Shown: positions 3,070 to 30,842, numbered from the stretch's first letter. The stretch: 64,000 nucleotides of DNA from Parcubacteria group bacterium LiPW_30 (GCA_007375595.1 VMEP01000001.1:415184-479183), one strand, 5' to 3'. The notes: a model not told the origin generated them from the sequence alone. Numbers and translations: made by a program.

Positions 3070-3071
3070 AA

Positions 3072-3098: not shown

Positions 3099-3104
3099 TA
3101 TTGG

Positions 3105-3178: not shown

Positions 3179-3271
3179 TTGCTTTGCGAGTATATCAATT
3201 TACTAAAAGTGACGCCACTTTATAAATAAGACAAAGCCACCGAATGGTGGCTTTGTGGTTAAAACGGTGGC

Positions 3272-3556: not shown

Positions 3557-3594
3557 TTTGGACCTCCTGTGTGTGCTATTTAGCTATTTCAAGA

Positions 3595-4542
3595 CTACTT
3601 TTTTCTTTTTGATAAGTCAATTTTCAAAAACCTTCCCACTTCTTTTAAGATTTTTACCTTTTCATTAGGCCTAAACCATTTAATTTTCTTATCTCTTTTA
3701 AACCAAGTCGCTTGGCGTTTGGCGTATTGCCAGGTGTCTCTTTCTATACTCAAAAGCATTTCGTTTTTTGTGATTTTATTTTGAAGATAAAGTGATAAAT
3801 ATTTATATTCCAAACCGAGAGATTCTAGTCTTTTCCACGACAGACCATTTTTATGAAGATTCTTTGCTTCAGCCACCATCCCTTTTTTAATTCGCGAAAG
3901 TAGGCGAAGGTGAACTTTTTGTTTTAGCTCATCGTCTTTCAAATCAAGCCCAATTTTTAAAACATTAAATTTTGGAGGTGAAACCTCCAAAAGAGGGATA
4001 CTACCTAAAGCGGTGGCTATTTCGATGGCGCGGATAAGACGTCGTGGGTTGTTTGCGTCAATTTCTTTTGCACGACGTGAATCCAGTTTTTTTAAAATCA
4101 CAAATAATTGAGGTACGGTTTTTTTCTCAAGCTCTTTTCTTAATTTTTTATTTGGTGGCACTTCTGGTACTACAATATTTTTTAATACCGCGTCTATATA
4201 CAAACCCGTGCCACCGCAGATAATCGGTAGTTTTCCTCGAGAAATTATCTCGCCAATAGTTTTATCTGCAAGATTTTTATATTCCGAAACAGAAAATTGT
4301 TTTTTTGAGTCGGCAATATCTAATAAGTGGTGAGGGATACCTTTCATTTCACGTTTGGTTATTTTCCCCGTCCCTAAATCAAGGCCACGATAGATTTGGC
4401 GCGAGTCGGCTGAAATCACTTCGCCATCCCATTTTTTGGCAAGAAGAACAGCCAAGTCGCTTTTACCGGTTGCTGTTTTGCCTAAAATGGCGATAATCCA
4501 CGGTTTTTTTACATTCTTTTTCATTAAACCTAACGCTACCAT
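3595..4542 (-). CDS. miaA: tRNA dimethylallyltransferase
   Basis: P-loop IIAILGKTATGKSDLAVLLA. It also carries the MiaA motifs ISADSRQIYRGLDLGTGK, HHLLDI and PIICGGTGLYIDAVL. The start may be at Met-7 (4524). Confidence 0.9.
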   Translation of the reverse strand: MVALGLMKKNVKKPWIIAILGKTATGKSDLAVLLAKKWDGEVISADSRQIYRGLDLGTGKITKREMKGIPHHLLDIADSKKQFSVSEYKNLADKTIGEIISRGKLPIICGGTGLYIDAVLKNIVVPEVPPNKKLRKELEKKTVPQLFVILKKLDSRRAKEIDANNPRRLIRAIEIATALGSIPLLEVSPPKFNVLKIGLDLKDDELKQKVHLRLLSRIKKGMVAEAKNLHKNGLSWKRLESLGLEYKYLSLYLQNKITKNEMLLSIERDTWQYAKRQATWFKRDKKIKWFRPNEKVKILKEVGRFLKIDLSKRKK

Positions 4543-5164: not shown

Positions 5165-5174
5165 CAAACAAATT

Positions 5175-5207
5175 AAAAGACGCTCTAGAAAGAGCGTCTT
5201 TTAATTT
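5175..5207 (+). terminator. terminator of the peroxiredoxin gene; also the left copy of the tRNA-Leu-associated direct repeat
   Basis: Hairpin agacgctct-aga-agagcgtct followed by tttaatttt. Confidence 0.6.
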
Positions 5208-5229
5208 TCGGTGCCGGGAGGGAGAATCG
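5194..5229. repeat. 36-bp direct repeat (copy 1) identical to the 3' end and flank of the tRNA-Leu gene
   Basis: gcgtcttttaattttcggtgccgggagggagaatcg is identical to 5494-5529, exactly 300 bp away. A third partial copy, gtgccgggagggagaatcggtcac, lies at 5373-5396. Confidence 0.8.
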
Positions 5230-5493
5230 GTCACAACTCTTCTGCTTCGATAAATCTACGCGACGAAGGTCGTTACCACGCCTCACTGTCGCCTTGCGAC
5301 ATGTTCCGGCTTTCGATTCTCCCCGCGAGTGAAGCAGTTCACTCTCTCTCCCGTCCACTCACTTTGTTCGTTGTGCCGGGAGGGAGAATCGGTCACGCAT
5401 AATTTTCTGCTGAAAATTTGCGCGACCCCGCCTTGGCACGTCTGCCTCCGGCTTTCGATTCTCTCGCCAAAAATTAAAAAACACCCAAAGAGG

Positions 5494-5529
5494 GCGTCTT
5501 TTAATTTTCGGTGCCGGGAGGGAGAATCG
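5494..5529. repeat. 36-bp direct repeat (copy 2) overlapping the genuine 3' end of tRNA-Leu
   Basis: See copy 1. This copy contains the real acceptor/T-arm 3' half of the tRNA plus 18 nt of downstream flank. Confidence 0.8.
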
Positions 5530-5593
5530 AACTCCCATGGATTACTCCGCACGATTTTGAGTCGTGTGCGTCTACCAATTCCGCCATCCCGGC
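5512..5593 (-). tRNA. tRNA-Leu (CAA), type II
   Basis: Reverse complement is GCCGGGATGGCGGAATTGGTAGACGCACACGACTCAAAATCGTGCGGAGTAATCCATGGGAGTTCGATTCTCCCTCCCGGCA. Anticodon loop CTCAAAA, long variable arm. CCA is not fully encoded (CCG). Confidence 0.8.
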
Positions 5594-8255: not shown

Positions 8256-8295
8256 ATTAATTATCCTATTTTCTTTCCCCCTTTCTTCTCTTCTA

Positions 8296-8357
8296 GTTTA
8301 TGCGGGTTATGCATTGGGCACGCTTTGTTACTACATCTTTCTGGAATTGTTTTTGGT
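8296..8357. repeat. intergenic duplicate of the 3' end of topA (62 bp, 1 mismatch)
   Basis: tagtttatgcgggttatgcattgggcaCgctttgttactacatctttctggaattgtttttg repeats 8492-8553, which encodes the topA C-terminus ..CPMHNPHKLAK. Confidence 0.8.
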
Positions 8358-8480: not shown

Positions 8481-10736
8481 TTATTTCGCTAGTTTATGCG
8501 GGTTATGCATTGGGCATGCTTTGTTACTACATCTTTCTGGAATTGTTTTTGTGCCTTCCATCATTAGTGAATCGCAGAGCTTACAGATTTTACCTGTTGG
8601 TCTTGCCTTGATAGCGTTTTTACAGCCTGGATAGTCTGAACATGAATAGAAGACACCAAAACGGCCACGGCGTTCAATCATTTCTCCTTTTTTACATGTT
8701 GGACAAGTAACCCCAGTTTTTCCTTTGGCTTCTTCTTCGGCGCTTTTTTTAATGAATTTACACTTTGGATAATTTGCGCAAGCGATAAATTTACCGAAGC
8801 GTCCTTCACGCTCGATTAGCTTTCCTTTTCCGCAAGAAGGACAAATCTCTCCTGTTTCCTTTGGTCCTTCAAGTTCAGTCCCGTCTAATTTTCTTGCGCC
8901 AATACAATCTGGAAATTTTGAACAAGAAAGGAATTTTCCACTTTTACTTAGTTTTATAACCATTAAGCTTCCACACTTTGGACATTTAATGCTTGGGTCA
9001 GCGTCTCCTAGGTTTGTTAATTTGGCGATTTTATCTTTTGACTTTACGTCTTTAGAAAATGGTTTGTAGAAATCACGAAGAGTTTTTTCGTAATCACGTT
9101 TGCCGTCGGCAATATCATCCAACTTATCTTCCATTTCAGCAGTGAAAGAATCACTAATATAGTTTTCAAAATTTTGTTCAAGGAAAGTACTAACAACTTC
9201 GCCAACGTCTGTTCCGCGAAGAGATCGTCCTTCTTTTTCCACATACTCACGCTCAAGGATTGTTTTGATAATCGCCGCGTAAGTTGAAGGGCGACCGATT
9301 CCTCTTTTTTCGAGTTCTTTAATAAGACCAGCTTCTGTGTAGCGATTTGGTGGTTCAGTTTGTTTTTCTTCTTCGTCTATAGAGATGAGCGCTAGTGGTT
9401 CGTCCACCGAAGTTACCGGAAGCTCAACATCATCTTCTCTTGAATCTTTGTCTGCCTCGAGCCACCCCAAGAATAATATTCGGTGTCCCGTTGCAGTGAA
9501 ATCGGGAATATCACCCTTTTTTATGTTTGCTGTTATTTTAGTACGCAACATTACAGCATCTGTCATTTGAGAGGCGACGGTGCGTTGCCATATTAAATGA
9601 TAAAGTTTTTTCTCTGCATCGTTTGAACCACGCTCTTCAAAAGAAGCGTCAGTTGGACGAATTGCCTCGTGCGCCTCTTGGGCGTTTTTGCTTTTTGTTT
9701 TAAATACGCGGGCTGTTACAAATTTTTCTCCAAACCTCTTACCAACCATGGCAATGATTTGGGCTTGAGCTTCCTTTGATAGGTTTGGGCTATCGGTACG
9801 CATGTAGGTGATATAACCAGCTTCATAAAGTCGTTGAGCAAGAGACATCGTTCTTGATGGCGCAAAACCAAGTCTTGAGCTTGCCGCTTGTTGTAATGTC
9901 GATGTTATAAATGGTGGGCGAGGGGAGCGAGATGTTTCAGATTCTTCTAGTTTTTTTACAAACCAATCTCCTTTCTTTCCGGAAGTAAGAATTTTTTTAA
10001 CAACATCTTCATCTCGCGGTTCATCCACACACGTAACAGTAAGAGACGCTTTCTTCTTCGTTTTTACATCGGCTCGTATAACCCAGTATTTTTCTGGCAC
10101 AAATGCGCGGATTTCACGTTCGCGTTCAATTACAATACGCAAAGCAGGTGACTGCACGCGTCCAGCGGAAAGTCCGTAGCGAACCTTTTTCCAAATAAGA
10201 CCAGAAAGGTCGTAGCCGAAAAGTCGGTCTAGTACACGACGCGCTTCCTGCGCTTTTCGTAAATCTGTATCAATGTCACGTGGGTGCTTGAGAGCTTCCT
10301 TTACGGCCGTTTCGGTAATTTCATTAAAAACAATTCTTTTAATAGGGGTTTTCTTTTTTACCGACGACATCAAGATTTCCTTCACGTGCCAAGCAATAGC
10401 TTCTCCTTCACGGTCGGGGTCGGAAGCAAGGATTATTTCAGATGCCTTAGAAGCTTCTTTTTGGAGCTCAGCAACAACCTTTTCTTTGCCCTTAGATATT
10501 TCGTAACGAGGAATAAAACCACCCTCAATATCGATGGCGGTTTTGTTACTTTTTGGCAAATCTCGAACGTGTCCAACGCTCGCCAAAACGGTATAATCCT
10601 TCCCAACATATTTGGAAATTGTTTTTGATTTTGCTGGTGATTCAACTATAAGAAGTTTAGTCATTGACATAACTTGTACATTATTACATTTATTTTTGCA
10701 AATTTTTGAAATACTTTCGTTTTTAAAAACACGCAT
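8481..10736 (-). CDS. topA: DNA topoisomerase I with C-terminal zinc-ribbon repeats
   Basis: TOPRIM N-terminus LLIVESPAKSKTI..DPDREGEAIAWH. Active-site region GYITYMRTDS. Three or four C-terminal CPxCG zinc ribbons. The true start is probably MSMTKLL near 10670. Confidence 0.9.
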   Translation of the reverse strand: MRVFKNESISKICKNKCNNVQVMSMTKLLIVESPAKSKTISKYVGKDYTVLASVGHVRDLPKSNKTAIDIEGGFIPRYEISKGKEKVVAELQKEASKASEIILASDPDREGEAIAWHVKEILMSSVKKKTPIKRIVFNEITETAVKEALKHPRDIDTDLRKAQEARRVLDRLFGYDLSGLIWKKVRYGLSAGRVQSPALRIVIEREREIRAFVPEKYWVIRADVKTKKKASLTVTCVDEPRDEDVVKKILTSGKKGDWFVKKLEESETSRSPRPPFITSTLQQAASSRLGFAPSRTMSLAQRLYEAGYITYMRTDSPNLSKEAQAQIIAMVGKRFGEKFVTARVFKTKSKNAQEAHEAIRPTDASFEERGSNDAEKKLYHLIWQRTVASQMTDAVMLRTKITANIKKGDIPDFTATGHRILFLGWLEADKDSREDDVELPVTSVDEPLALISIDEEEKQTEPPNRYTEAGLIKELEKRGIGRPSTYAAIIKTILEREYVEKEGRSLRGTDVGEVVSTFLEQNFENYISDSFTAEMEDKLDDIADGKRDYEKTLRDFYKPFSKDVKSKDKIAKLTNLGDADPSIKCPKCGSLMVIKLSKSGKFLSCSKFPDCIGARKLDGTELEGPKETGEICPSCGKGKLIEREGRFGKFIACANYPKCKFIKKSAEEEAKGKTGVTCPTCKKGEMIERRGRFGVFYSCSDYPGCKNAIKARPTGKICKLCDSLMMEGTKTIPERCSNKACPMHNPHKLAK

Positions 10737-17373: not shown

Positions 17374-19289
17374 TTAATATAATTCGTACAATTTTTGTTG
17401 GAATAATTCTATTTTTAATAAATCCAGGTGTTTCTTTTGGCGCATCAATTAAAACATACACTGATTCTTCTGGTTTAAACCCTCGTTCCTCCCCACCATA
17501 TGTTGGCGGCTATGTCGTAGAGACGTTTACTTCATCGGGGACTTTTACTCCACCTGCTGGAGTCACCTCCGTGGATTACCTTGTTGTTGCCGGTGGTGGA
17601 GGCGGAGGCTCTGTTAATGGTGGGGCTGGTGGGGCTGGTGGTTTTCGAACTGCTAGTAATTATGTTGTGGTACCAAATAACCCAGTGACCGTCGTTGTTG
17701 GGGCTGGTGGGGCGAAAGGTAATCCATACGGTGGGAATAATGGATATGATTCTATTTTTGATTCTATTATATCGATAGGTGGTGGCGGTGGCTCTGGTGG
17801 TGGAGGTGCTGTTGAGGCAAAGGTTGGTGGTTCTGGTGGTTCGGGTGGATATTGGGTTTCTGGCGCTGCTGGCACCTCGGGGCAAGGTTATGCGGGTGGC
17901 ACTGGTGCTGGTGGATATCCAATAACTGGTGCTGGTGGAGGTGGAGGTGCCGGGGAAGCAGGAGACTCCCCTTTGTATGATTACACAGCAACTGATGGGG
18001 GTAATGGGCTTTCTTCTTTTATATCCGGGGTTAATACTTATTATGCTGGCGGTGGTGGCGGATGGGGGTGGGAGCAAGAACTTAGTTTAGAAAGAGATGG
18101 ACTCGGGGGCTTGGGTGGTGGCGGTTCAGGTAGAGTTAGCGGAGATGCAGGCGATGGTAGCGTAAACACTGGCGGTGGTGGCGGTGGTTCAAGTGAAAGT
18201 GGTGGCAACGGCGGGTCCGGCATCGTCATATTGAGGTACCGTAGCCCAGGTACTGTAAACATTACCTCAAGTATTTCATCGTCTTGGGTGGTTACCGGCC
18301 CGGCGACGATTACCGGCTCGGGCACCTCGCAGTCCTCGCCATCACAGCCCGCAGGAACATACACCATCACCTGGGGCGAGGTGTCCGGTTACACCGCTCC
18401 TGCGACTCAGAGCCTCACACTCGCTTCTGCTGGCACAATCACGTTTAACGGTACTTATGTGGCATTAACACCACCAACTACCACTTTCTCTGCTTCGCCA
18501 GCAACTATTTCGTATAACACATCCTCAACACTTAATTGGAGTTCAACAGATGCAACATCTTGTACTGCCGGGGGTGATTGGTCGGGAACAAAAGATATAT
18601 CAGGTAGTGTTAGTACTGGAAATTTAACAACATCTAAAACATACACACTCTACTGTACGGGCCCTGGAGGAAATTCTGTTACACAATCAGCGGCGGTAAC
18701 AGTAGAATCAAACCCACCAACTACTTCAATCACTAGTCCAACAATCGACATCACAATCCCTGAAAACCAAGAGCAACAATTTACAGGAGAAGCAGTAGAC
18801 ACAGATGGGACGATAGTTGGATATCAATGGAGAATGGGAAATTGTACAACAGGTACCGTTCTTAGTTCTTTGATAAGTTTTGCCAGATCATTTACACCAG
18901 GAACATATGATGTTTATTTCAGGGCCCAAGATAACAACGGGTTTTGGTCATTAGATTGCCCGACACGCAGAATTGATGTTGTCGTAAGTAATCAAATACC
19001 TGGTGTTTGCGGGGCTTCTAATGGTGTGCCAACTCAAAAGAAACCAACGTCAAATCTTTGTAGTACAGTAGGCTTACCGGAACCCGTTGTCTCGCCGGAA
19101 AATATTAGTGTCTTACCAGAAAGCGGCAACCCTTCTTCATGGTCATGGACATGCTCTGGAGAAAACGGTGGCGCAGATGCTGCTTGTGGAACCGCGACTT
19201 CGTGTGGTGATAATAAATGCCAGGCATCTAAAGGAGAAAACCCCTCAACATGTAAGGCTGATTGCAAGATAAAGTTTTTTGAGTTTTAG
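17370..19289 (+). CDS. secreted glycine-rich repeat protein with Ig-like middle domains and a Cys-rich C-terminal module
   Basis: Signal peptide. Gly-rich block with VDYLVVAGGGGGGS..GGAGGAGG..GGNGGSGIVILRY (glycine-rich-protein type repeats). Then Thr/Ser-rich beta domains. C-terminus has 10 Cys (CGASNG..LCSTVG..WSWTCSGENGG..ACGTATSCGDNKC..CKADCK). Confidence 0.75.
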   Translation: MINIIRTIFVGIILFLINPGVSFGASIKTYTDSSGLNPRSSPPYVGGYVVETFTSSGTFTPPAGVTSVDYLVVAGGGGGGSVNGGAGGAGGFRTASNYVVVPNNPVTVVVGAGGAKGNPYGGNNGYDSIFDSIISIGGGGGSGGGGAVEAKVGGSGGSGGYWVSGAAGTSGQGYAGGTGAGGYPITGAGGGGGAGEAGDSPLYDYTATDGGNGLSSFISGVNTYYAGGGGGWGWEQELSLERDGLGGLGGGGSGRVSGDAGDGSVNTGGGGGGSSESGGNGGSGIVILRYRSPGTVNITSSISSSWVVTGPATITGSGTSQSSPSQPAGTYTITWGEVSGYTAPATQSLTLASAGTITFNGTYVALTPPTTTFSASPATISYNTSSTLNWSSTDATSCTAGGDWSGTKDISGSVSTGNLTTSKTYTLYCTGPGGNSVTQSAAVTVESNPPTTSITSPTIDITIPENQEQQFTGEAVDTDGTIVGYQWRMGNCTTGTVLSSLISFARSFTPGTYDVYFRAQDNNGFWSLDCPTRRIDVVVSNQIPGVCGASNGVPTQKKPTSNLCSTVGLPEPVVSPENISVLPESGNPSSWSWTCSGENGGADAACGTATSCGDNKCQASKGENPSTCKADCKIKFFEF

Positions 19290-22042: not shown

Positions 22043-22064
22043 TTTAGTTTCGCGGGAAATACAT

Positions 22065-22135
22065 TGCCGGTTCGTCTAATGGTAGGACACCGCCCTTTGA
22101 AGGCGGGTATTGGGGTTCGAGTCCCTGACCGGCAG
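22065..22135 (+). tRNA. tRNA-Gln (TTG)
   Basis: TGCCGGTTCGTCTAATGGTAGGACACCGCCCTTTGAAGGCGGGTATTGGGGTTCGAGTCCCTGACCGGCAG. U1-A72 pair is typical of bacterial tRNA-Gln. Anticodon loop CTTTGAA, discriminator G. Followed by a T-run. Confidence 0.8.
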
Positions 22136-22202
22136 TTTTTGAGCGTAGTTCGAGAAGTGTTGTGTTTATATTAAACTCTAATCTGATATAATTAAGAAAA
22201 TT

Positions 22203-23027
22203 ATGTTAGTTACCAATAAAACAAAAATTCTTTCCCCTGTTAAACTAGCACCATATTTTCAAGAGGATAATTTTGTTCTATACAATAGCGACTCAATTAT
22301 TTTACTGAATCAATTACCAGAAAGTTCAGTAGATATGATATTTGCGGATCCTCCATACAATCTTTCGAATGACGGTTTTAGCGTACATGCTGGGCGAATG
22401 GTAAGTGTTAATAAAGGCGATTGGGATAAAAGTAAAGGATTCCAAGACGATTATGCCTTCCACTATCGTTGGATGGAAGCTTGTAGGCGAGTTCTTAAGC
22501 CAAACGGCACACTTTGGGTAAGCGGTACTTATCACTCAATTTACCAATGTGGACATGCCCTTCAATCACTCAGTTATCATATTTTGAATGATATAAGTTG
22601 GTTTAAACCAAACGCTTCACCGAATTTGAGCTGTAGATTTTTTACGGCAAGCCACGAGACACTTATTTGGGCGAGGAAAGAAAAAAAGGCAAAACATAAT
22701 TTTAACTATGATTTAATGAAAAACGGGGAATGGCCTGAGGATAAATTAAAGAAACCAGGTCTTCAAATGAGATCCGTTTGGTCTATGGGGACTCCTCGCC
22801 CCGAAGAGAAAAAATATGGTAAGCACCCAACACAAAAACCTCTAGATTTGCTCAAAAGAATAATTTTAGCAAGCACAAACAAAGGAGATGTTGTTTTAGA
22901 TCCGTTTACAGGTAGTTCTACTACCGGGATTGCGGCGGTGATGTACGAGAGAAAATTTATTGGAGTAGATCTTGAAAAAAAGTACCTTGATTTATCTGTT
23001 AAAAGATTTAATGATTTAAAAAAATGA
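22203..23027 (+). CDS. DNA methyltransferase, beta class (DPPY motif; N6-adenine or N4-cytosine)
   Basis: Motif IV IFADPPYNL precedes motif I VVLDPFTGSSTTG (the beta-class permutation). HPTQKP is also present. Confidence 0.85.
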   Translation: MLVTNKTKILSPVKLAPYFQEDNFVLYNSDSIILLNQLPESSVDMIFADPPYNLSNDGFSVHAGRMVSVNKGDWDKSKGFQDDYAFHYRWMEACRRVLKPNGTLWVSGTYHSIYQCGHALQSLSYHILNDISWFKPNASPNLSCRFFTASHETLIWARKEKKAKHNFNYDLMKNGEWPEDKLKKPGLQMRSVWSMGTPRPEEKKYGKHPTQKPLDLLKRIILASTNKGDVVLDPFTGSSTTGIAAVMYERKFIGVDLEKKYLDLSVKRFNDLKK

Positions 23028-23548
23028 TTAACAAAGGAAAAGGGGGAGGTAATACAATAACAGGACTTAATTTTGAAAAGGAAAAAGATATTCTTTCTCT
23101 TCTTAAAACTAAGAAAGGATATAGTGTTAAAGGAACAGCTATCTTTTATAACGGGAAGGAAGTTGCGAGGAACTATAAGAAAAATGCTCTATATAAATTT
23201 CTAGAATCTGAGAAGATAGATTACAAGAAAATTCTTTCTAAAAAACTTCTCCCCGATGAAGCTTTATATGTAATTGTTAATAACACCCTATTTATTATAG
23301 AGCTTAAGTTTCAGAAAGTAGCTGGGTCAGTCGATGAAAAATTACAGACATGTGATTTCAAAAGAAAACAGTATGCAAAATTGATGGCACCATTGAATAT
23401 AGAAGTTGAATATATCTATGTTTTAAGCGATTGGTTTAAAAAACCAGAATATAAAGATGTGCGAGATTATATAATTTCCGTAGGATGTCAGTATTATTTT
23501 GATTATCTTCCTCTACAAAAACTTGGGTTGCCTGTTCCACAAGATTAA
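23024..23548 (+). CDS. putative Type II restriction endonuclease (PD-ExK)
   Basis: Start overlaps the MTase stop (ATGA). PD..(E)xK signature LPDEALYVIVNNTLFIIELKFQK. 174 aa, otherwise novel. Confidence 0.5.
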   Translation: MINKGKGGGNTITGLNFEKEKDILSLLKTKKGYSVKGTAIFYNGKEVARNYKKNALYKFLESEKIDYKKILSKKLLPDEALYVIVNNTLFIIELKFQKVAGSVDEKLQTCDFKRKQYAKLMAPLNIEVEYIYVLSDWFKKPEYKDVRDYIISVGCQYYFDYLPLQKLGLPVPQD

Positions 23549-23574: not shown

Positions 23575-23615
23575 CAGTCTGTTTGAGATGGGTTCAGACT
23601 CTGAAGAAAATCGAA
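23575..23615 (+). promoter_or_regulatory. conserved upstream box (copy E): cagtctgtttgagatgggttcagactctgaagaaaatcgaa
   Basis: Homologous to 24852-24888 (tcagtttgagataagttcggactccgaagaacgtat). Both lie 5-15 nt before a start codon. It shares the YTCNGARGAAcgtcg core with the boxes at 24115 and 25813. Confidence 0.4.
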
Positions 23616-23619
23616 AAAC

Positions 23620-24105
23620 ATGGCGCAAATAATCAAAAAAGTATTTCATTGGCTTGGAACATTCCTTTGGAAGGATAAAACTTTAGCAATTATGGGTATT
23701 GTAATTGGGGTACTCGGCATTTATTTAGCTATAGATGCAAATAAAAGAACGGAAAAAGCTGAGGTTTTGCAAAAAATATCAGAGAAAAGCTATTTCGAGA
23801 CGACCTATAAGAAGATTTTCTTCAGTATTCCAATAGGAAATGGAATAGAAGATTTTAAAAAATTACCTAAAGAAACAGTAAATTCAATTCTGAATGACGC
23901 ACTCAGCGACATAGAATCGCAAATGAATAATAAATATCTTATTTCTAATACCGACTGCTTTAATAGTTGGAAGAGTTTTCAAGAATTTTTATATTTAGCC
24001 ATCAGATCTCCGGAAACTTTTGATTCTATGGGACCAGAACATAGCATCGCAAAGAACTATTACGCAAAATTGGATCCGCTATTGAATTATTGCCATAGTC
24101 TATGA
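23620..24105 (+). CDS. hypothetical membrane-anchored protein
   Basis: One TM helix (LAIMGIVIGVLGIYLAI). No motif. Confidence 0.5.
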   Translation: MAQIIKKVFHWLGTFLWKDKTLAIMGIVIGVLGIYLAIDANKRTEKAEVLQKISEKSYFETTYKKIFFSIPIGNGIEDFKKLPKETVNSILNDALSDIESQMNNKYLISNTDCFNSWKSFQEFLYLAIRSPETFDSMGPEHSIAKNYYAKLDPLLNYCHSL

Positions 24106-24153
24106 TTTTACCTATTCTGAGGAACGTCGGAGGGGCGGAATAAAAGTAATCAA

Positions 24154-24198
24154 AAAAGCCTTGTGGAGTTTGGTGGTATAATTTACGAGACCGAGGAG
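24154..24198 (+). promoter_or_regulatory. conserved promoter-like module P (copy A) with extended -10 TGGTATAAT
   Basis: aaaagccttgtggagtttggtggTATAATttacgagaccgaggag, preceded at fixed 26-nt spacing by box ttctgaggaacgtcgga (24115-24131). Confidence 0.5.
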
Positions 24199-24275
24199 AT
24201 CATCTTAAAACGACAACAGGCAATAGGAGGCCTTCGAGATTCGAGAGGAGATTCTAGTCATAAGTTTGTGTATAA

Positions 24276-24821
24276 TTGTCTATTATGGCAATCAAAAAAA
24301 CATCAGAGATTGGTAGTAAAGTAATCCGCTCTCGATCAAAAGAAGTTGAAAAAATAACTTCTTTGAGAGTTAAGAAAATAATAGTTGATCTCGTGGATAC
24401 TATGAGACATGTGAATTTGGTTGGTATGGCGGCACCCCAAATTGGAATAGGAAGTAGAATTTTTGTTACTGAAATTAGGAAAACAATAACACGAAAAAAT
24501 ATTTCTAAACCTGACCCACTTAAGGTTTTTATCAACCCCGAAATAACTAAGACATCAAAGAAACTTGTTGATGGATATGAGGGTTGCGGAAGCGTCGCCT
24601 CGGGGGGATTATTTGGAATCGTGAGAAGACCAGAAACTGTTTCCGTTCGAGCTTTTGATGAAACAGGTGAAGAATTTGAGTTAGAGACTTCTGGGTTGTT
24701 AGCAAGAATTATTCAACATGAGATTGACCATCTTGATGGAATTTGTTTTATTGATAAGGTTACAGACACTAAAAAATTGTTAGGTCGTCAAGAATATATC
24801 AAAATGGGAAGAAAAAAGTAG
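24276..24821 (+). CDS. def: peptide deformylase
   Basis: All three PDF motifs: GMAAPQIG, EGCGS, HEIDHLDG. Confidence 0.9.
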   Translation: MSIMAIKKTSEIGSKVIRSRSKEVEKITSLRVKKIIVDLVDTMRHVNLVGMAAPQIGIGSRIFVTEIRKTITRKNISKPDPLKVFINPEITKTSKKLVDGYEGCGSVASGGLFGIVRRPETVSVRAFDETGEEFELETSGLLARIIQHEIDHLDGICFIDKVTDTKKLLGRQEYIKMGRKK

Positions 24822-24851
24822 GCCGGACTTTTTTTAGAGAAAAGAATCTAA

Positions 24852-24888
24852 TCAGTTTGAGATAAGTTCGGACTCCGAAGAACGTATA
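24852..24888 (+). promoter_or_regulatory. conserved upstream box (copy F)
   Basis: See copy E. Follows the def terminator ggccggacttttttt. Confidence 0.4.
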
Positions 24889-24892
24889 TTTT

Positions 24893-25795
24893 ATGGAACT
24901 AAATCTTGGTTACAGAAACAAAATACTTATTTTAGGCGCGGGTGCGTCTAAAGACTATGGGCTACCAATCTGGAAAGAGTTGGATTCTTTGATAAAGGAG
25001 AGACTGAAAGATGGTGGAGAAAATCAATATTCACGCGCAAAGGATGTTTTGGCTTGGCTAGATAAGGTGGGAGAAAAAAACGAATATAAAACTATTGATG
25101 AATGCATTGAAAAGGAATCAGTAACAGGAATCTATCATTCAGATGGAGATAGTGTGGAAAACGATCTATTCTCGTCAGTCAAAGATATCTTCAACGAAGT
25201 TTATAAAGAAAATAACGAAGGTTGGATAACAAGGTTGAGTAATAAAATTTTACATAACTCTGAAAACCGATTGGAAGAGAGAGTGGCTTTCATAAATTAT
25301 AATTACGATAATGTTTTAGAGAAAAACCTCTTAAGATTTGGTCATCTGCCAGGGAAACATTTGCGTCTCAATAATAAACCTAGACTAGACCAGTTATCGT
25401 CGGTGCAGGTACCTGTTTTGTATGCTCATGGGAATCTTTATAAGAAATCTGAGGTACCCTTAGGGTCCCATACGGATAGATATTACAAAACCATGAAGAG
25501 TGGTTTCGTTGGGTATATAGATGTTGTTTCGTGTTATGAAAGCCACAACCATACAGTTAATCACGAGTTAGATGCCGACGAACTTGAAATGTATATTTTA
25601 GGATTGGGCGGGGGTCTTAAATTCAATCTTAGTAAACTTAATATTTCCAAGAAAGTGTCGCAAATTTCTGTGACAATTAGTAATGCTCATGACGATGAAG
25701 AAATTATAAAATTTTTAAGTACAAAATTTAAAGTTCCAGTAGAGAAAATTTTTATATATAGATCTTGTGCTGAGTTAATTGATACATGCTTCTAG
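24893..25795 (+). CDS. SIR2-like (SIR2_2 family) protein, stand-alone; putative NAD+-depleting defense effector
   Basis: N-terminus KILILGAGASKDYGLPIWKELDSLI matches the SIR2_2 signature (lFlGAGvS...GlPsW..L) used by ThsA/DSR-type antiphage proteins. 300 aa, no other domain recognised. Confidence 0.65.
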   Translation: MELNLGYRNKILILGAGASKDYGLPIWKELDSLIKERLKDGGENQYSRAKDVLAWLDKVGEKNEYKTIDECIEKESVTGIYHSDGDSVENDLFSSVKDIFNEVYKENNEGWITRLSNKILHNSENRLEERVAFINYNYDNVLEKNLLRFGHLPGKHLRLNNKPRLDQLSSVQVPVLYAHGNLYKKSEVPLGSHTDRYYKTMKSGFVGYIDVVSCYESHNHTVNHELDADELEMYILGLGGGLKFNLSKLNISKKVSQISVTISNAHDDEEIIKFLSTKFKVPVEKIFIYRSCAELIDTCF

Positions 25796-25851
25796 TAATA
25801 AATCGACTCTCATTCAGAGGAACGTCGAAATGGTACGATTAGAGATGTCAG

Positions 25852-25897
25852 AAAAGCCTTGTGGGGCTTGATGGGCAAATATACGAGACCGAAGAGG
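25852..25897 (+). promoter_or_regulatory. conserved promoter-like module P (copy B)
   Basis: aaaagccttgtggggcttgatgggcaaatatacgagaccgaagagg, preceded at 26-nt spacing by box ttcagaggaacgtcgaa (25813-25829). Confidence 0.45.
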
Positions 25898-26005
25898 CCA
25901 GTTTTTGAGCTGTTTTCTAGGGGTTATTCGTGCGAGGAATGATAAAGTAGTACTATAAAGCGACAAAGTTGTGTGTTTCGTTTGATAAACTTTTGGAATA
26001 AATTT

Positions 26006-26287
26006 ATGAACAATAAAGAAGCTAAAGCACGAATCAGAATAAACAGTCTACTCCAACAGTCTGGCTGGAGGTTTTTTGATGACGAAAACAGCAAGGCAAA
26101 CATTGCTCTAAATAAACTTTCAAAAAAATCAGTTGATGAATTAGGAAACGATTTTGAAAAAACAAAGAACAATTTTACCGATTTTCTTCTTCTTGATGAA
26201 AAAGGTTTCCCCTATGTTGTGTTTGCTGCAAAATCAAGCGCCGAACTGTTCGAGTTAAAAATAAAATCAAAAATCGATGAATTATGA
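26006..26287 (+). CDS. small HsdR_N-like (type I restriction R-subunit N-terminal nuclease-like) domain protein, catalytic Glu apparently replaced
   Basis: EAKARIRINSLLQQSGW and DFLLLDEKGFPYVVFAAK align to the EcoKI HsdR N-terminal motifs ESRFLIDAQLRKAGW and DYVLFVGLKPIAVVEAK. The ExK glutamate aligns to Ala. Start taken at the ATG at 26006. Confidence 0.5.
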   Translation: MNNKEAKARIRINSLLQQSGWRFFDDENSKANIALNKLSKKSVDELGNDFEKTKNNFTDFLLLDEKGFPYVVFAAKSSAELFELKIKSKIDEL

Positions 26288-26300
26288 GGAGAATAATTAT

Positions 26301-26483
26301 ATGAGCAGTAACATTATCAAACAACATTTAGCAGAGATGGTAAAAGACAAGAAACTGGATGCCGAGTTCATCCAGCTTTTGTCTGGTTCGAACGACAACA
26401 ACGAGGAAGGCAGAGATACTGCTATAAAGATTCTGTTTGCGATAAAAAAACGCTATGTTGAAAGTAAAAAAGATAACTCTTAG
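26301..26483 (+). CDS. small hypothetical protein (60 aa) inside the putative defense operon
   Basis: GAGGAG RBS 9 nt upstream of ATG at 26301. Overlaps the next gene by 29 nt. Helical, charged. Confidence 0.35.
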   Translation: MSSNIIKQHLAEMVKDKKLDAEFIQLLSGSNDNNEEGRDTAIKILFAIKKRYVESKKDNS

Positions 26484-28902
26484 TGGCTTCCGAGGGATTC
26501 TCAAACCTCAAGACCTAATCCTTACAGAAAAAGGAGACTCAAATCCGCACTCACTTGTTTTGTACGGACTCAATAGTTCTGGTAAAACTTCTTTCGTTGA
26601 CGGCATTGAGTGGTTTTTATCCGAAGAGAATAAGGTTGAATGGCTCACGCGTGAAGATGCCGAAGAGAAAGCCTACCCCCATTTAGCAGCCGACTCCAAA
26701 AAGGTTGAGAGCTTTGTAGAGTTGCAGTTCAATGACACAGACAAAAAGTTAGATTCTCTTCGCAAGACATACAGTCACAAAAAGATAACGCAACCCACAC
26801 TATCGTCCGAGAGTGATTTTGAAAACGTTTATAAGGTGTTCGTGATAAAGCCTTATCTTCGTTATCTGGAAGTTATAGATTTCGTTTATAACCACACGGG
26901 GCTAAAGAAGTATCAAAGGCTCGCGAATTGGATGGGATTTGAAAGTGAGCAGGCATTTCAAGAAAAGCTCGCCCTAAAGATACTCCCAGAGCTGAAAAGA
27001 AGAAAAGAAGAGTTATCAAATACCGTCGAAACTCTCGGCAGTCATCTATCGCGACTGACAGGAAGCAGCGACATATCGGAAATAGAGATTTTGAGAGTAA
27101 GTAATGGGATTTTAGCCTTGCATAAAATCGCCGAAAAGAAGAACGTTAGTGAGCTTATGGATTACATTCCAGAGTTTGCAAAGCTCCGTGCTATCTCCTC
27201 TGTAGGAATCACGGTAGATAAACTTACCCAAGCAGAAACCAATATTAGCTTGTTTGCTATAAATAAGACACTTCTTGAATCTCTTGCGGATGCAAAGAAA
27301 AAAGTTGATGACTTTAGTAAAGAACTAAAGAAAATTGAACAGATTAATGTCATCGGACTCTACGATCAGGCTTTAGAGGTTTTGAATAAGCAAACAGAGT
27401 CGGCAACTGTTTGTCCTGTATGCGGCACCAGTTGGAAGAAAGATGAGCTGGTAAAACATATCCAAGACGAACTGGGGTTACTCACAAAGGTAAAAGAAGA
27501 CAAAGAAGCGCTTGAGCTAACAGTTAGTCGACTCAAATCGGCAGTAAGAACTGAAATAACCGCAACAGAGAGACTGGTTTCAAAATACGATGACGTTCAA
27601 AAAATAATTCCAGTTCTTACATACGAAAAGGTAAAATCGTATAAAGATGCTCTGTCCATAATGGAGAGCGGTTGGCTAACTAAACCTCTGGGCAGTAATA
27701 CTGAAATAACACTCACACAGGAACTTCGCGACCAGAGTGAAGAAGAGCAGCAACAAATACTAAAGACCATCACTGCTGAAAAGACGAAGATTCAGCCATC
27801 AGAGAAAGACATCAAGATTGCAGAGGATATTGAAAAACTGACTCAAATACGGACGAAGCTCATAGAAGTCAAAGATGCCGAAGCTGAACGGGAGTTTACG
27901 GAAAAGGAGATTGAAAAGTTCATTGCAGTAAGCAATAAGCTCGTCACTTTGATTCAAGAGAACATCAAGTCTCGATTCAATGAGATTTCCGAGCGCATTG
28001 GCAAATACTTTTCAATTTTGAGGAACGATAAAGATATAAAAAACATCGAGATTGTCTTGAACGAAGAAAAAGGACGTGCGGCGGGGCGTTCAGCAGAGAT
28101 ACAGCTCCACTACTACGATGTGACCGTAAAGCCCGCCTATAAAGTTTTGAGTGAGTCATTGTTAAACAGTTTGGGGTTGGCGGTGTATTTCACCTGCATC
28201 AAGCAGTTCAATCAGGACTGCAAGTTTATAGTGCTTGACGATATAATGAACAGCCTCGACATAGATAAAAGAGACACACTACTTGATTTGATTGAGCAGG
28301 AGTTCGGTGATTATCAGGTTATTCTTTTCACACACGATTATTATTGGTTTCAAAAGATATTGAGACGATTTCCAAAATGGATACGAAAGAAAATAAAAAG
28401 TTGGGGCTACGAAACAGGCGCCCTTATTGATGTTGCTGCAACAACTCAAGGAGAGATTGAGGAATGTCTGGCGGATGCAACCAAGATTGAGGATGCTGGC
28501 TGGAAACTCGGAAGATATGTTGAGAGCACGCTAAACGAGTTTTGCGAGAATCTGTGGGCAAAAGTTCGCTACCGCTATACAAAGAACGACCCGCCCGCAA
28601 TGGAAGAGCTATTTGATGCACTGTGCGGGCGCCTAAAAGACAAGCTGAACGAACACCCAGTAGTAAAACAAATACAGGAGGCTAAAAAATATGAACCTAT
28701 ACTGCGCAATTTTGTGTCTCACGCAAGAACAAATAGTGGCTCTACGGTTTCGCCTCAAGAGATAAAACGAGCAGCGAAAGAATGGTTCAAACTTGAGAGT
28801 CAACTTTGGTGTAACGACTGTAGTCAATTCGTTGAATATCATAAAACCAAATCGTCAATCGAATGTCACTGCGGGAAGTTGAAACTGGAGAAAGTAAAAT
28901 GA
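26455..28902 (+). CDS. Rad50/SbcC/RloC-like ABC ATPase with coiled-coil zinc hook and C-terminal extra domain
   Basis: N-terminal ITLSGFRGI..LYGLNSSGKTSFVDGIEW (Walker A). Roughly 500 aa of coiled coil containing a CxxC hook (TVCPVCGTSW, ~res 320). Walker B/D-loop FIVLDDIMNSLD. H-loop ILFTHD. Then a ~190-aa C-terminal domain ending in a C-x2-C..C-x-C ribbon. Confidence 0.8.
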   Translation: MLKVKKITLSGFRGILKPQDLILTEKGDSNPHSLVLYGLNSSGKTSFVDGIEWFLSEENKVEWLTREDAEEKAYPHLAADSKKVESFVELQFNDTDKKLDSLRKTYSHKKITQPTLSSESDFENVYKVFVIKPYLRYLEVIDFVYNHTGLKKYQRLANWMGFESEQAFQEKLALKILPELKRRKEELSNTVETLGSHLSRLTGSSDISEIEILRVSNGILALHKIAEKKNVSELMDYIPEFAKLRAISSVGITVDKLTQAETNISLFAINKTLLESLADAKKKVDDFSKELKKIEQINVIGLYDQALEVLNKQTESATVCPVCGTSWKKDELVKHIQDELGLLTKVKEDKEALELTVSRLKSAVRTEITATERLVSKYDDVQKIIPVLTYEKVKSYKDALSIMESGWLTKPLGSNTEITLTQELRDQSEEEQQQILKTITAEKTKIQPSEKDIKIAEDIEKLTQIRTKLIEVKDAEAEREFTEKEIEKFIAVSNKLVTLIQENIKSRFNEISERIGKYFSILRNDKDIKNIEIVLNEEKGRAAGRSAEIQLHYYDVTVKPAYKVLSESLLNSLGLAVYFTCIKQFNQDCKFIVLDDIMNSLDIDKRDTLLDLIEQEFGDYQVILFTHDYYWFQKILRRFPKWIRKKIKSWGYETGALIDVAATTQGEIEECLADATKIEDAGWKLGRYVESTLNEFCENLWAKVRYRYTKNDPPAMEELFDALCGRLKDKLNEHPVVKQIQEAKKYEPILRNFVSHARTNSGSTVSPQEIKRAAKEWFKLESQLWCNDCSQFVEYHKTKSSIECHCGKLKLEKVK

Positions 28903-29378
28903 CCTGGTATCAAAAGACGTTAAAGAAATACGGGAAAGAAATCCTGACAGGGGCAATCTTTTCTGTTATCTGTACACTCGCATTCCTACTCTGGATTTAT
29001 GGAATGGGTAAGACGTTCACATGGACAGATATCAGTCCAATAGATCCGCCTTCAATCTTTGTCAGATTTCTCTATAGCGCTCTTACATTTGTCACCTTAG
29101 GGCGAATTTTGTATGTCACAGGCTTTTACAAAGCCTTGTATCAAATCATTGGCGATTGGCAGTCATTCAAGGAGGCGAAAGTAATTATTTGGTTATTACT
29201 TATGGGCGCTATGTTCTTCGTGATTGTTCCTACTATCGTAGATATACTCAATGGCATTCTCTCAGTCGGATATAACTTGTTCGCTTTGATACTTTACGCA
29301 TTTCCACCAGTAGGCGTCTCATTAATCTTTTTTGTATTTTACTTCTATTTCAAAAGGAAACTCCGACCGATATCCTAA
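28899..29378 (+). CDS. 4-TM membrane protein translationally coupled to the ABC ATPase
   Basis: ATG overlaps the ATPase TGA (ATGA). Four predicted TM helices. No known domain. Confidence 0.6.
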   Translation: MTWYQKTLKKYGKEILTGAIFSVICTLAFLLWIYGMGKTFTWTDISPIDPPSIFVRFLYSALTFVTLGRILYVTGFYKALYQIIGDWQSFKEAKVIIWLLLMGAMFFVIVPTIVDILNGILSVGYNLFALILYAFPPVGVSLIFFVFYFYFKRKLRPIS

Positions 29379-29412
29379 GGGGACTGTTATTTTTATCACT
29401 TTTTATAAAACT

Positions 29413-29874
29413 ATGAAATATTTTGCTTACGGATCAAATATGCTGCAGGGTCGTCTTGAAGACCAAAAGAATGTTCGAGACGAAAGCATTGGCTCGGTTC
29501 AGGACATAGGAACAGCTAGTCTGCCAGATTATCGATTGGTTTTTAATAAAATCGGTAAGAAGGATGGAATAAGTGGTAAGGCGAATATAGTTCAAGAGCA
29601 AGGCGCAGAGACACTAGGAGTTGTGTATGAATTGTCCAATGAGCAAATCAATCTTTTGGATAGTATTGAGGGAAAGGGCTACAAAAGAATTCCAGTTGGT
29701 ATTAATTTCAATGGCGAACAGCTTGAGATTGATACTTATGTTGCTCAAGCTAATAGTGTTCAAGAAGGACTATCACCAACAAGAGAGTATTTGAACTTTG
29801 TAATTCAAGGCGCTGTAATTCATGGCTTTCCAGAAGCGTACGTTTCGTTCCTCAGATCTATCAAAGTTCAATAA
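29413..29874 (+). CDS. gamma-glutamyl cyclotransferase-like (AIG2/GGCT fold) protein
   Basis: MKYFAYGSNM..RL N-terminal signature (YGSN motif) and catalytic Glu candidate (GVVYEL). 35 nt downstream of the membrane-protein gene. Confidence 0.65.
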   Translation: MKYFAYGSNMLQGRLEDQKNVRDESIGSVQDIGTASLPDYRLVFNKIGKKDGISGKANIVQEQGAETLGVVYELSNEQINLLDSIEGKGYKRIPVGINFNGEQLEIDTYVAQANSVQEGLSPTREYLNFVIQGAVIHGFPEAYVSFLRSIKVQ

Positions 29875-29963
29875 TTAGGGGCGCACGAGACGCGTCGTTC
29901 TGATAAACTAAGATTAGTAAAGGCTATTACAAGTAACATCAAAACGATAAAAGAAAAGTGATC

Positions 29964-30009
29964 AAAAACCTTGTGGGGCTTGATGGTATAATTTATGAGA
30001 CCGAGGGGG
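29964..30009 (+). promoter_or_regulatory. conserved promoter-like module P (copy C)
   Basis: aaaaaccttgtggggcttgatggTATAATttatgagaccgaggggg. A fourth partial copy, aaaaagccttgtgtgg, lies at 30558-30573. Confidence 0.5.
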
Positions 30010-30035
30010 TCAGTAAATTATCGTAGAATAATATA

Positions 30036-30482
30036 ATGAATGAAATAACACTTCACAATCAATGGGTCGTTAAAGCTCCGATAGATGACGTATTCAGAAT
30101 AATGACCGACTTTGAAAAATTTCCAGAACATTTTCCAAAGGTTGCCGAGGTGGTAGAGATTAAAAAGCGGGAAGGAGACTATCTCGAGATAGAAGCAATA
30201 GTAAGATCCTTCGGTAAAAAATTTCAGGTGAAAATGAAGACTCGAATTCTTCCGGGGAAAGGATTCATCTCAGATAATGATAGCTATCAGTTTGGGACTT
30301 CTGGACATGAAGAGGTGTTGTTATCTCCACACGCCGAAGGAACTTTGATTGACTATACCTATCAAGTCACTATTCATAAAAAATGGCTACGTATAGTTGC
30401 TGTGCCACTATTACGCTGGTATTCGATGAAATACTGGGAAAAAGCAGTTATTCAGGAGCTTAAAAAGATTCTGGAGAAATAA
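30036..30482 (+). CDS. SRPBCC (START/Bet v1/polyketide-cyclase-like) family protein
   Basis: W.V.APIDDVFRIMTDFEKFPEHFP N-terminal signature of the polyketide_cyc2 / SRPBCC fold. Confidence 0.65.
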   Translation: MNEITLHNQWVVKAPIDDVFRIMTDFEKFPEHFPKVAEVVEIKKREGDYLEIEAIVRSFGKKFQVKMKTRILPGKGFISDNDSYQFGTSGHEEVLLSPHAEGTLIDYTYQVTIHKKWLRIVAVPLLRWYSMKYWEKAVIQELKKILEK

Positions 30483-30590
30483 AAATGGGTGCAACCATAA
30501 CTACAAATATGTAGGTTTCAAAGAGTGGTAAAATAAAAATTTTAGAATAAAAATAATAAAAAGCCTTGTGTGGTTTTTGAAAAATAAAGT

Positions 30591-30842
30591 ATGGTTAAAA
30601 AAGAAATTGCTACTGGTACGATACATAAATTACCTGATGATTTAAAAAAGGCGCTTCTTTCCGCACCGCAGTCGCTAGTAACATGGGAAGAAACCACACC
30701 GCTTGCACGCAATGAATGGATTTGTTGGGTTACATCGGGTAAAAAAGCGGAGACGAGAAATATTCGTATTGAAAAAGCTCTTTCAAAGCTTAAGGGTGGA
30801 ATGCGTAGACCTTGTTGCTGGGCGGGCTGTACTCATCGCTAG
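30591..30842 (+). CDS. YdeI/OmpD-associated family protein
   Basis: LPDDLKKAL...P.....W..TTPLARNEWICWVTSGKKAETRNIRIEKAL matches the YdeI_OmpD-associated pattern (..rrey..WI..AKK.ETR..RI). Confidence 0.6.
   Translation: MVKKEIATGTIHKLPDDLKKALLSAPQSLVTWEETTPLARNEWICWVTSGKKAETRNIRIEKALSKLKGGMRRPCCWAGCTHR

Follow-up and report, generated by a model that had tools for sequence, protein, structure and literature searches.

The repeats described here lie in a 64,000-nucleotide (nt) stretch of the genome of the Parcubacteria group bacterium LiPW_30 (VMEP01000001.1:415184–479183), hereafter the window, which belongs to a low-GC genome of the candidate phyla radiation (CPR). A preliminary description, made from the window alone, had placed a module and an upstream box in front of several genes. 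Both are parts of one gapless element of ~95 nt, here called B, which is built in the order B1-mid-B2-B3. The repeats noted earlier are real, and B, rather than being the promoter of a regulon, is a hitherto undescribed, conserved element at the junctions of a variable gene slot or array linked to tRNA-Gln in the CPR. What matters most is the link to tRNA-Gln and the conservation across the CPR, neither of which is visible from the sequence of the window alone. The interpretation that we favor, at a probability slightly below even, is that the modules are boundary elements of a gene-cassette array that is seeded at the tRNA-Gln 3′ end and undergoes exchange in trans.

Sequence searches recover the family reported previously: three full copies of the module and one partial copy, together with two copies of each of two boxes. 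Allowing up to 3 mismatches, a 43-mer representing the module is found at 24154 and 29964, and a 21-nt module core matches at 24156, 25854, and 29966; neither pattern finds a match in 100 shuffles. The repeat search returns a 49-nt family at 24154, 25852, and 29964 (80–86% identity) as well as an 85-nt pair at 24114 and 25812 (74% identity), in which the “YTCNGAGGAACGTCGRA box” and the module are joined at a fixed spacing. This box had been taken for a separate operator; it is instead the 5′ block, B1, of the gapless element and resembles a Shine–Dalgarno (SD) sequence with a start site. The fourth copy is a genuine partial one, in which positions 30527–30576 align over 49 nt to the middle and B2 of copy 3, and both B1 and B3 are missing. 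The second box, termed box A, is found at 23575–23615 and 24852–24889, and its hairpin shows a compensatory change between the two copies (TTCAG-ACT-CTGAA versus TTCGG-ACT-CCGAA). Its proposed role as a regulatory site is not supported, as it is a 5′ leader with a ribosome-binding site and, in other genomes, lies directly against the tRNA-Gln 3′ end. With a covariance model, no additional B copies are detected in the other ~57 kb of the window. The module is specific to the island and is not a generic promoter: TGnTATAAT occurs 10 times on the plus strand, and 2 of these 10 occurrences lie in modules. The statement that nearly every gene or operon carries its own module was too strong, since the units consist of either one gene or a multi-gene block (26006–29874).

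The distribution of B was examined with an exact-pattern scan that used the conserved positions of the module and covered 185,579 GTDB species genomes and metagenome contigs. Matches occur in 12 of the 185,579 genomes; three are chance matches inside coding regions, and nine are CPR metagenome-assembled genomes (MAGs) from at least four classes (Saccharibacteria, Parcubacteria, Doudnabacteria, and Paceibacterota). The metagenome scan yields 26 contigs with the pattern, one of which (L031; loci are numbered with the prefix L) is a chance match, and B is known from ~40 loci overall. The upstream box is present at an unchanged distance in every true pattern match. Thirty unique B copies align over ~94 nt without one gap, affording the consensus cATTCCGAGGAGcGTCrAAATGgtagaatAAAAgtaatcaaAAAAgCCTTGTGGGGCTTGATGGgtAAATtTACGAGACCGAGGAGGcCAGCc. 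The least conserved stretch of B is the 8-mer at the “−10” position; its flanks are near-invariant, also where the search pattern left positions free. CCGAGGAG is repeated in the same orientation in the end blocks B1 and B3. Sub-blocks of B (B1, B2/B3, and optional 5′ prefixes such as GTGTCGCATTTGTCGCTTTTGA, which some copies carry) occur singly or combined, with B1-only spacers in L052 (15177), L035 (989), and L019 (2603). Beside the first subfamily, F1, there exist a second one, F2, and further diverged copies. An occurrence in 9 of 185,579 GTDB genomes by exact pattern is sporadic, yet B is very highly conserved, a combination consistent with an element that moves horizontally. Copies 1 and 2 of B in the window share 71% identity with each other, whereas their best identities to copies from other lineages are 80% and 84%, which indicates that the array did not grow by local duplication. 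As a sequence comparison, this low identity within the window argues for independent arrival of the copies. Rfam 15 contains no match to B, and the four tRNAs of the window alone reach the gathering threshold; at E ≤ 5–10, searches with the region or with single elements gave nothing credible for B. No description of B was found in the literature searched, nor was anything relevant found there on a CPR integron, cassette system, or motif. IMG/VR likewise holds no B matches, and the box A pattern has only chance coding-region matches there; a phage origin was accordingly set aside.

B is closely associated with tRNA-Gln. ARAGORN, run on 20 loci, places a co-oriented tRNA-Gln gene 0.3–3.7 kb upstream of B in 14 of them; the same arrangement is present in the window, L053, and L054. 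Where CCA is encoded, the tRNA-Gln genes end in ...GCAGCCA. Of 13 tRNA-Gln genes compared, 7 have box A immediately at their 3′ end, as does that of L054; after tRNA-Gln, box A reads GTTTGAGATAGGTTCGGACTCCGAGGAGCAT-N-ATG. The 3′ half of box A is an SD sequence located 8–12 nt before the ATG of the next open reading frame (ORF). Because box A adjoins both the tRNA-Gln end and the next ORF, it is tRNA-Gln trailer and next-ORF leader in one. Homologues of box A are present in L004, L020, L033, L035, and L052, and a degenerate box A follows the tRNA-Gln of the window (22065–22135).

The 3′ end of B resembles that of the tRNA. B3 (CGAGACCGAGGAGGCCAGCCA) aligns without gaps to the T-loop-to-CCA segment of tRNA-Gln (CGAATCCAAGTCCCGCAGCCA); a hand count gives 13 matches over 21 positions, including all of the last 6 (CAGCCA). 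The diverged B3 of L054 (CCGAATCCGAGGAAGCCAGCA) is more tRNA-like than the usual B3. B3 is followed directly by box A in L033, L019, L054, and L056 and by box A variants in L006, L036, L018, L021, L027, and L030. A second recurrent right-hand box, TAAGTCAGG, is found after tRNA-Gln in L020 and after B3 in L052, L016, and L010. In the window, the exact 12-mer CAGTTTTTGAGC has two copies in 64 kb. One (22133–22144) spans the tRNA end and the start of the degenerate box A (22136–22165), and the other (25899–25910) lies at the junction of B3 of copy 2 with a box A-like sequence. The two copies bracket 3.8 kb, and ~0.008 chance copies would be expected from a sequence space of 4^12. The junctions of B3 with box A mirror, and are equivalent to, those of tRNA-Gln with box A. 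Over the whole element, the similarity of B to tRNA-Gln is weak (z 0.7–3.6), and a tRNA is detected in B neither by ARAGORN nor, even when matches up to E ≤ 10 are admitted, by the Rfam tRNA covariance model. Judging from the sequence, the 5′ end of B1 is unable to pair with the 3′ end of B3 to form an acceptor stem.

The genes next to B differ from locus to locus. B has the orientation of both neighboring genes in nearly all loci, starting 1–36 nt past the upstream stop codon (sometimes overlapping it), with the next start codon 20–120 nt away. These genes are small accessory or defense-type genes, and the flanking proteins are all mutually unrelated (NUDIX, methyltransferase, DEAD helicase, GIY-YIG, reverse transcriptase-like, PD-(D/E)XK, and others); no protein family is common to the upstream or to the downstream neighbors of B. 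Co-oriented arrays of unrelated ORFs, each followed by B, are present in the window, L019, L033, L052, and L056. Relatives of LiPW_30 carry different content in the slot. For L050 (DnaX 94% identical; dnaX 83% identical at the nt level), the alignment stops at window position 22137, the end of tRNA-Gln, past which L050 has two other genes, with the first ORF 2 nt after the tRNA. One of these is judged Mrr-like from a GDGGIDG motif. A relative with 65% DnaX identity shows the order tRNA-Gln/box A-DUF4177-B-NUDIX-...-B1-ORF-....

The same gene can also be followed from slot to slot. Homologues of ORF300, a SIR2/AbiH-like cassette gene of the window (24893–25795), are again located between box A and B when 73–77% identical, in differing slots. 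In L053 and L054/55, the homologue is the first cassette behind tRNA-Gln. In L056/57 it lies deep in the array near a cyclic oligonucleotide-based antiphage signaling system (CBASS), with another B before it and a GGACT gene after it; a GGACT gene is also found in the window. The CBASS-like pair of L056 (CD-NTase_C and Cap15), together with other defense genes, occupies 2501–4020 of the same array punctuated by B and box A. A 65% identical homologue in L058 stands right after the tRNA with neither box A nor B, and homologues at 45–50% identity lie elsewhere, also without box A or B. ORF161, the other single-gene cassette with a box A leader, is uninformative for a second comparison of this kind because it is an orphan.

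The window array carries a type II restriction-modification pair, SIR2/AbiH-like, LmuB-like ATPase, peptide deformylase, GGACT, and SRPBCC proteins, all on the plus strand. It is anchored at tRNA-Gln (UUG), placed at 22065–22135 by Rfam and at 22064–22136 by ARAGORN. The first block behind the tRNA (22203–23548) contains a type II N6/N4 DNA methyltransferase (22203–23027) and a PD-(D/E)XK nuclease-like ORF (23024–23548). Box A copy 1 (23575–23615; ...CAGTCT/GTTTGAGATGGGTTCAGACTCTGAAGAAAATCG; nhmmer E = 1.3e-6) is the leader and SD-like region of ORF161 and has the hairpin UUCAG-ACU-CUGAA. ORF161 (23620–24105) matches only itself, in LiPW_30, and has no Pfam or PADLOC match. It is followed by B copy 1 (24111–24208; covariance model 82.8 bits, E = 8e-16), with B1 at 24114–24134, a candidate hairpin at 24158–24200, and B3 at 24185–24204. 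The peptide deformylase (def) cassette (24285–24821) comes next and has its own TATAAT (24271–24276) in a leader (24205–24284) whose similarity to a degenerate box A was read from the sequence. Box A copy 2 (24852–24889; nhmmer E = 3.2e-8), the leader and SD-like region of ORF300, precedes that gene, and B copy 2 (25809–25906; 100.6 bits) follows it. This copy is nearest the family consensus, with a candidate hairpin at 25856–25898 and GGGCAAAT instead of TATAAT. The multi-gene block (26006–29874) comprises two small ORFs, an LmuB-like SMC/AAA ATPase (26455–28902), a membrane ORF, and a GGACT/AIG2-like ORF (29413–29874). B copy 3 (29923–30018; 80.5 bits), in which B1 is degenerate, is followed by an SRPBCC/polyketide-cyclase-like cassette ORF (30036–30482). 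The truncated B, also seen as a weak nhmmer match at 30558–30576, ends 15 nt 5′ of a YdeI/OmdA ORF (30591–30842).

The conservation of B, its context, its linkage to tRNA-Gln, the equivalence of the junctions, and the variable content between relatives are direct observations, and they frame our proposal for the array. A cassette would consist of box A, as leader and ribosome-binding site, one or several ORFs, and then B, whose parts would follow in the order B1, A-rich middle, and B2/B3, where an imperfect hairpin may form. The 3′ end of B3 would be a copy of the T-loop-to-CCA end of tRNA-Gln. The exchange or attachment (att) site would be the composite “B3...CAGCC(A)/GTTTGAG... box A”, equivalent to “tRNA-Gln...CAGCCA/GTTTGAG... 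box A”. Cassettes would be inserted, lost, and shuffled at this composite junction by a recombination function encoded elsewhere in the genome; exchange is proposed to occur in trans because no recombinase lies nearby. The likeliest agent would be a site-specific recombinase, with RecA-mediated exchange after DNA uptake, via the conserved flanks, as the fallback. Recombination at the junctions of B and box A, like its mode, is something that we infer. The TGGTATAAT motif in two of the window copies would reflect drift to the perfect form in this genome.

Several results weigh against this proposal. Pfam searches of the window between 17.4 and 43.2 kb reveal no integrase or other recombinase, and no recombinase or transposase recurs among 122 neighboring ORFs from 22 loci, in which the recurrent families are DnaX/HolB and NUDIX. 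Motif scans of all loci also find no tyrosine or serine recombinase, and neither a circular junction nor a precise empty/occupied pair was observed. Junctions are not significantly more alike within genomes than between them (global test, p = 0.2). The B copies beside orthologous ORF300 genes differ strongly from each other, so B is not simply co-inherited with “its” ORF. The exchange point is ambiguous because B1-like sequence borders each ORF at either end (box A is similar to B1 in its 3′ half) and because B1-only spacers exist. Finally, the near-invariance of 40+ nt exceeds that of most att arms and could instead reflect an RNA or protein-binding role.

A different tRNA gene of the window shows repeats of its own end. 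The last ~20 nt (CGATTCTCCCTCCCGGCAC) of tRNA-Leu(CAA) (5510–5593, minus strand) are repeated behind it at 5400–5373 and 5240–5211, within the region 5170–5593, and the last partial copy has the tRNA's own terminator hairpin. From their sequence, these partial repeats look like att scars of old integrations, which would give integration at tRNA ends a precedent in this genome.

The principal alternative, which we consider possible though on the unlikely side and which is compatible with cassette exchange, is that B is a tRNA-Gln-derived RNA punctuation and expression module within the transcript. The B2/B3 hairpin and the ...CAGCCA tail would mimic the acceptor/T-arm minihelix of tRNA-Gln, and RNase P or 3′ processing would cut polycistronic transcripts at the same place as behind a real tRNA. 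The freed mRNAs would begin with box A, the hairpin and the SD sequence would set translation, and the variable genes would merely lie between such marks. An imperfect 15-bp hairpin is indeed possible on the sense strand of B2/B3, between consensus positions 60–78 and 85–102, with a predicted energy of −17.1 kcal/mol and z = −2.5, as compared to z = −0.4 for the full-length antisense strand. The antisense strand cannot form it because the stem contains four G-U pairs. This strand preference favors a role in RNA, as does the strict co-orientation of B with the genes. The outer helix carries two-sided changes in diverged copies, from GCCUU/GGAGGC to GCUUU/GAAGC in L054, to GCUCU/AGAGC in L053, and to CGUUAC/GUGACG in the upstream copy of L056, which has a clean 16-bp stem. 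Among 36 copies in a model-fitted alignment, 6 pairs show double changes versus 1.7 ± 1.1 after shuffling (0 of 500 shuffles reach 6), and 89.5% of cells are paired versus 35–56% with slid partners. These counts rest on an alignment fitted to the structure. The SD sequence of box A before the ATG, the compensatory change in box A copy 1 of the window, the shared 3′ end of B and tRNA-Gln, and the same downstream box behind both are also consistent with processing and translation signals.

Other results argue against this RNA-level alternative. RNAalifold gives only −4 to −7 kcal/mol for B, with a covariation term close to nil, and favors another pairing. As read from the alignment, ~8 of 30 F1 copies (GAGTCAGTC and GAACAGG variants) have a disrupted outer helix, and the negative Rfam, ARAGORN, and tRNA covariance-model searches point in the same direction. 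The differing gene content of relatives and the sporadic occurrence in the CPR would also be left unexplained. We regard the B2/B3 hairpin, as modeled, as likely but not established. The AAGCC/GGCTT mini-hairpin proposed for the module, in contrast, is not conserved, with mismatches in copies 1 and 3 and a single compensatory case (L005), as judged by eye. A single B1 hairpin (CCAUUCCGAGG-AG-CCUCGGAAUGG) is perfect in L010 and is not kept in other copies. An antisense terminator or antisense RNA was rejected, given the weak antisense fold and the location of all genes on the sense strand.

It is improbable that homologous recombination alone accounts for the array, with B and tRNA-Gln/box A as mere homology arms through which RecA swaps DNA taken up, with no dedicated enzyme. 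The lack of a recombinase near any locus would suit such exchange, as would the ~100-nt near-identical flanks on either side of a variable ORF and the presence of dprA in the corresponding neighborhood of relatives. Mixed B halves, with the GAGTCAGTC allele of B3 in both F1 and F2, are likewise expected from it. However, B is 85–99% identical across classes whose tRNA-Gln differ by ~30% (an estimate), and homologous recombination explains neither this pattern nor the gapless architecture and the possible hairpin. The same-genome copies are also unhomogenized (71%), though active exchange would tend to homogenize them.

The regulon model, in which the module is an extended −10 promoter combined with an operator box and one transcription factor co-regulates the island genes, is very unlikely. 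Copies 1 and 3 do carry the perfect extended −10, TGGTATAAT (24174–24182 and 29984–29992), which matches the usual TGnTATAAT of the genome; the SRPBCC ORF and def start 44–103 nt downstream of these copies, and the box-to-module spacing is fixed. However, the −10 is absent from copy 2, which has TGGGCAAAT there, from the upstream copy of L056, and from the F2 subfamily, and the −10-like 8-mer is the least conserved part of B, reading GTAAAT, TAGAAT, AGATTT, GGGAAT, and others among the 30 copies. No −35 is present, the promoter scanner does not call the modules, and the conserved B3 would fall downstream of the transcription start. Ordinary promoters here lie within 5–25 nt of the ATG that they precede, and a separate TATAAT precedes def at 24271. 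Over 40 loci, the genes downstream of B have no function in common, and a linked regulator gene is lacking. Since the neighbors of B in different genomes are unrelated, the transcription-factor reading of the preliminary description is without support. Judging from their sequence, copies 1 and 3 probably also act as promoters here, as a secondary, lineage-specific use. A generic promoter was dismissed as well, as the TGnTATAAT occurrences have only the −10 part in common with the module, and so was a riboswitch or other cis-regulatory leader, as the downstream proteins have no common function or pathway.

The ordinary promoters of this genome have features of their own. TGnTATAAT is found 5–25 nt before the start codon (e.g., 20944, 22184, 16887, and 5670), so near the start that many genes would have leaderless or very-short-leader mRNAs. 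The cassette genes, unlike ordinary genes, have box A leaders with GAGGA(G/A).

The least probable explanation, and a highly improbable one, is that B is a selfish interspersed repeat that copies itself between genes in the manner of a miniature inverted-repeat transposable element (MITE), a repetitive extragenic palindromic (REP) sequence, or a BOX element, for although B is short, intergenic, multi-copy, and modular, with sub-blocks alone or combined, it has no terminal inverted repeats, its orientation is strictly fixed, it occupies one locus type behind tRNA-Gln with no copy in the other 57 kb of the window, its same-genome copies are as divergent as copies from different classes, and no transposase lies nearby.

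Individual B copies show further variation. The optional 5′ prefix in L003, L006, L010, L022/L039, L037, and L056 comprises two ~11-nt direct repeats, GTGTCGCATTT GTCGCTTTTGA, with ATTGTCACTATTGTCACTTTT in L056, and in some copies it pairs with the 3′ part of B1 (UUUUGACC/GGUCAAAA). Among the prefix-bearing loci, L003, L006, L010, L037, and L039 have no tRNA-Gln within the fetched flank. The F2 copies (L020, 9043–9168; L033, 4700–4815) have a different center, CCCTTACAAGGTCTCAAGTTGTGAGGTTCTAGACC, and their 5′ GACUGA can pair with a 3′ UCAGUC in an acceptor-stem-like manner. In L020, a 120-nt insert lies between F2 and box A, and the end of this insert is tRNA-like (...TCGATTCCAAGTCCGCCAGCCA). 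A small conserved peptide encoded in B was considered and rejected, as the mini-ORF mostly reads MVE-stop and its ATG is replaced (by ACG, ATC, or similar) in about one-third of copies. Window copy 2 (25843–25884) and ~6 other B copies contain a 13-codon ORF (M...K/N-P-C-G-A-stop), which begins at the B1 ATG and ends with the TGA of GCTTGATGG; it is not conserved because most B copies read MVE-stop.

The window contains two other repeat regions. A 63-nt direct repeat with 98% identity (8293–8355 and 8489–8551) lies inside a minus-strand ORF of 751 aa. A 13-copy family of 31-nt GGT/GGC-rich repeats at 17595–18204, irregularly spaced by multiples of 3 nt, encodes the glycine-rich domain of a 639-aa protein (Gly_rich_2 and PKD). 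The block at 16.2–19.5 kb is missing from the 83% identical relative L050.

CPR bacteria (Patescibacteria) are episymbiotic, with tiny genomes and few recognizable mobile elements, and their acquisition and exchange of defense and accessory genes are poorly understood. B is a readily searchable ~95-nt marker of a variable-gene slot behind tRNA-Gln in several CPR classes and, as such, would offer a handle on their flexible gene pool. With this marker, metagenome cassettes could be catalogued, a partner recombinase could be sought by co-occurrence, and integrase-unlinked capture outside integrons could be put to the test. In its fullest form, which we consider conceivable but doubtful, our proposal is that the CPR have an integron-like, mechanistically distinct mode of gene capture. 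Cassettes of a single gene or a small operon, with a ~130-nt composite site made of a tRNA-Gln-derived hairpin element and a leader box, would be added one after another at the tRNA-Gln 3′ end by a recombinase encoded in trans and would spread defense and accessory genes between CPR classes; B may double as a tRNA-mimicking RNA processing signal that makes captured genes expressible. Should the RNA-level reading be true, B would be a new conserved tRNA-mimic processing or translation signal. Either outcome would be new biology for a major uncultured lineage.

The cassette-like organization suggested in the preliminary description is supported, with a resemblance to integron arrays alongside clear differences from them. 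As in integron arrays, co-oriented and mostly single, unrelated ORFs are each followed by a conserved, possibly hairpin-forming site of ~60–140 nt, each such site adjoins the beginning of the following cassette, and content varies between relatives. Unlike integrons, the B array has no IntI-type integrase or attI/Pc platform beside it and has a tRNA gene as its starting point. Conservation of B is at the level of sequence; that of attC is mainly structural. The two end blocks of B repeat CCGAGGAG in direct orientation rather than as inverted R″/R′, with no R″-L″...L′-R′ architecture, and the B junction CCA/GTTTGAG does not fit GTTRRRY. The cassettes of the B array also bring their own leader and SD sequence in box A.

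Tycheposons of Prochlorococcus are tRNA-seeded islands in which older material is pushed inward by each new integration, with partial tRNA copies at the boundaries and defense or adaptive cargo in streamlined genomes; they carry their own tyrosine recombinase and replication genes and are kilobases long (bioRxiv 10.1101/2020.12.28.424599). The B array shares with them its position beside a tRNA and defense-type cargo and, on our proposal, growth by successive insertions; its boundaries may likewise be partial tRNA copies. It differs in that its units are often a single ORF without a mobility gene and in that B is a separately conserved 95-nt element common to several classes, not a plain copy of the local tRNA end. 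As in tRNA-targeting islands generally, the B array has a tRNA 3′-end location and variable content, but no island-encoded integrase was found. The B array, which lacks both a linked integrase and attC architecture, therefore belongs neither to integrons nor to tycheposon-type islands.

Three further systems offer partial parallels. Integrative mobile elements exploiting Xer (IMEX) at dif and the pdif modules of Acinetobacter plasmids carry small cargo between short recombination sites and are mobilized in trans by a recombinase encoded elsewhere; their sites are 28-bp XerC/D sites with inverted arms. By analogy, the B array may likewise consist of small cargo modules with short conserved bounding sites, but no palindromic core is evident at the B/box A junction, where an imperfect inverted pair of GAGWCCGAR, separated by 23 nt, is all that is seen. 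Plant mitochondrial t-elements, and RNase P acting on bacterial polycistronic mRNAs, involve tRNA-like processing signals that are not tied to variable gene content. B may be comparable to these as a tRNA-derived, non-tRNA hairpin between cistrons with a tRNA-3′-end-like finish, at which cleavage is hypothetical; unlike t-elements, B fails every tRNA detector and is tied to variable gene content. Pneumococcal BOX, Neisseria Correia, and enterobacterial REP/bacterial interspersed mosaic elements (BIME) are dispersed genome-wide, species-restricted, and often present in both orientations. B appears analogous to them in its modular sub-blocks, its intergenic position just past stop codons, and its possible promoter or processing side effects. 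In contrast to these repeats, B is locus-specific, fixed in orientation, and conserved across classes.

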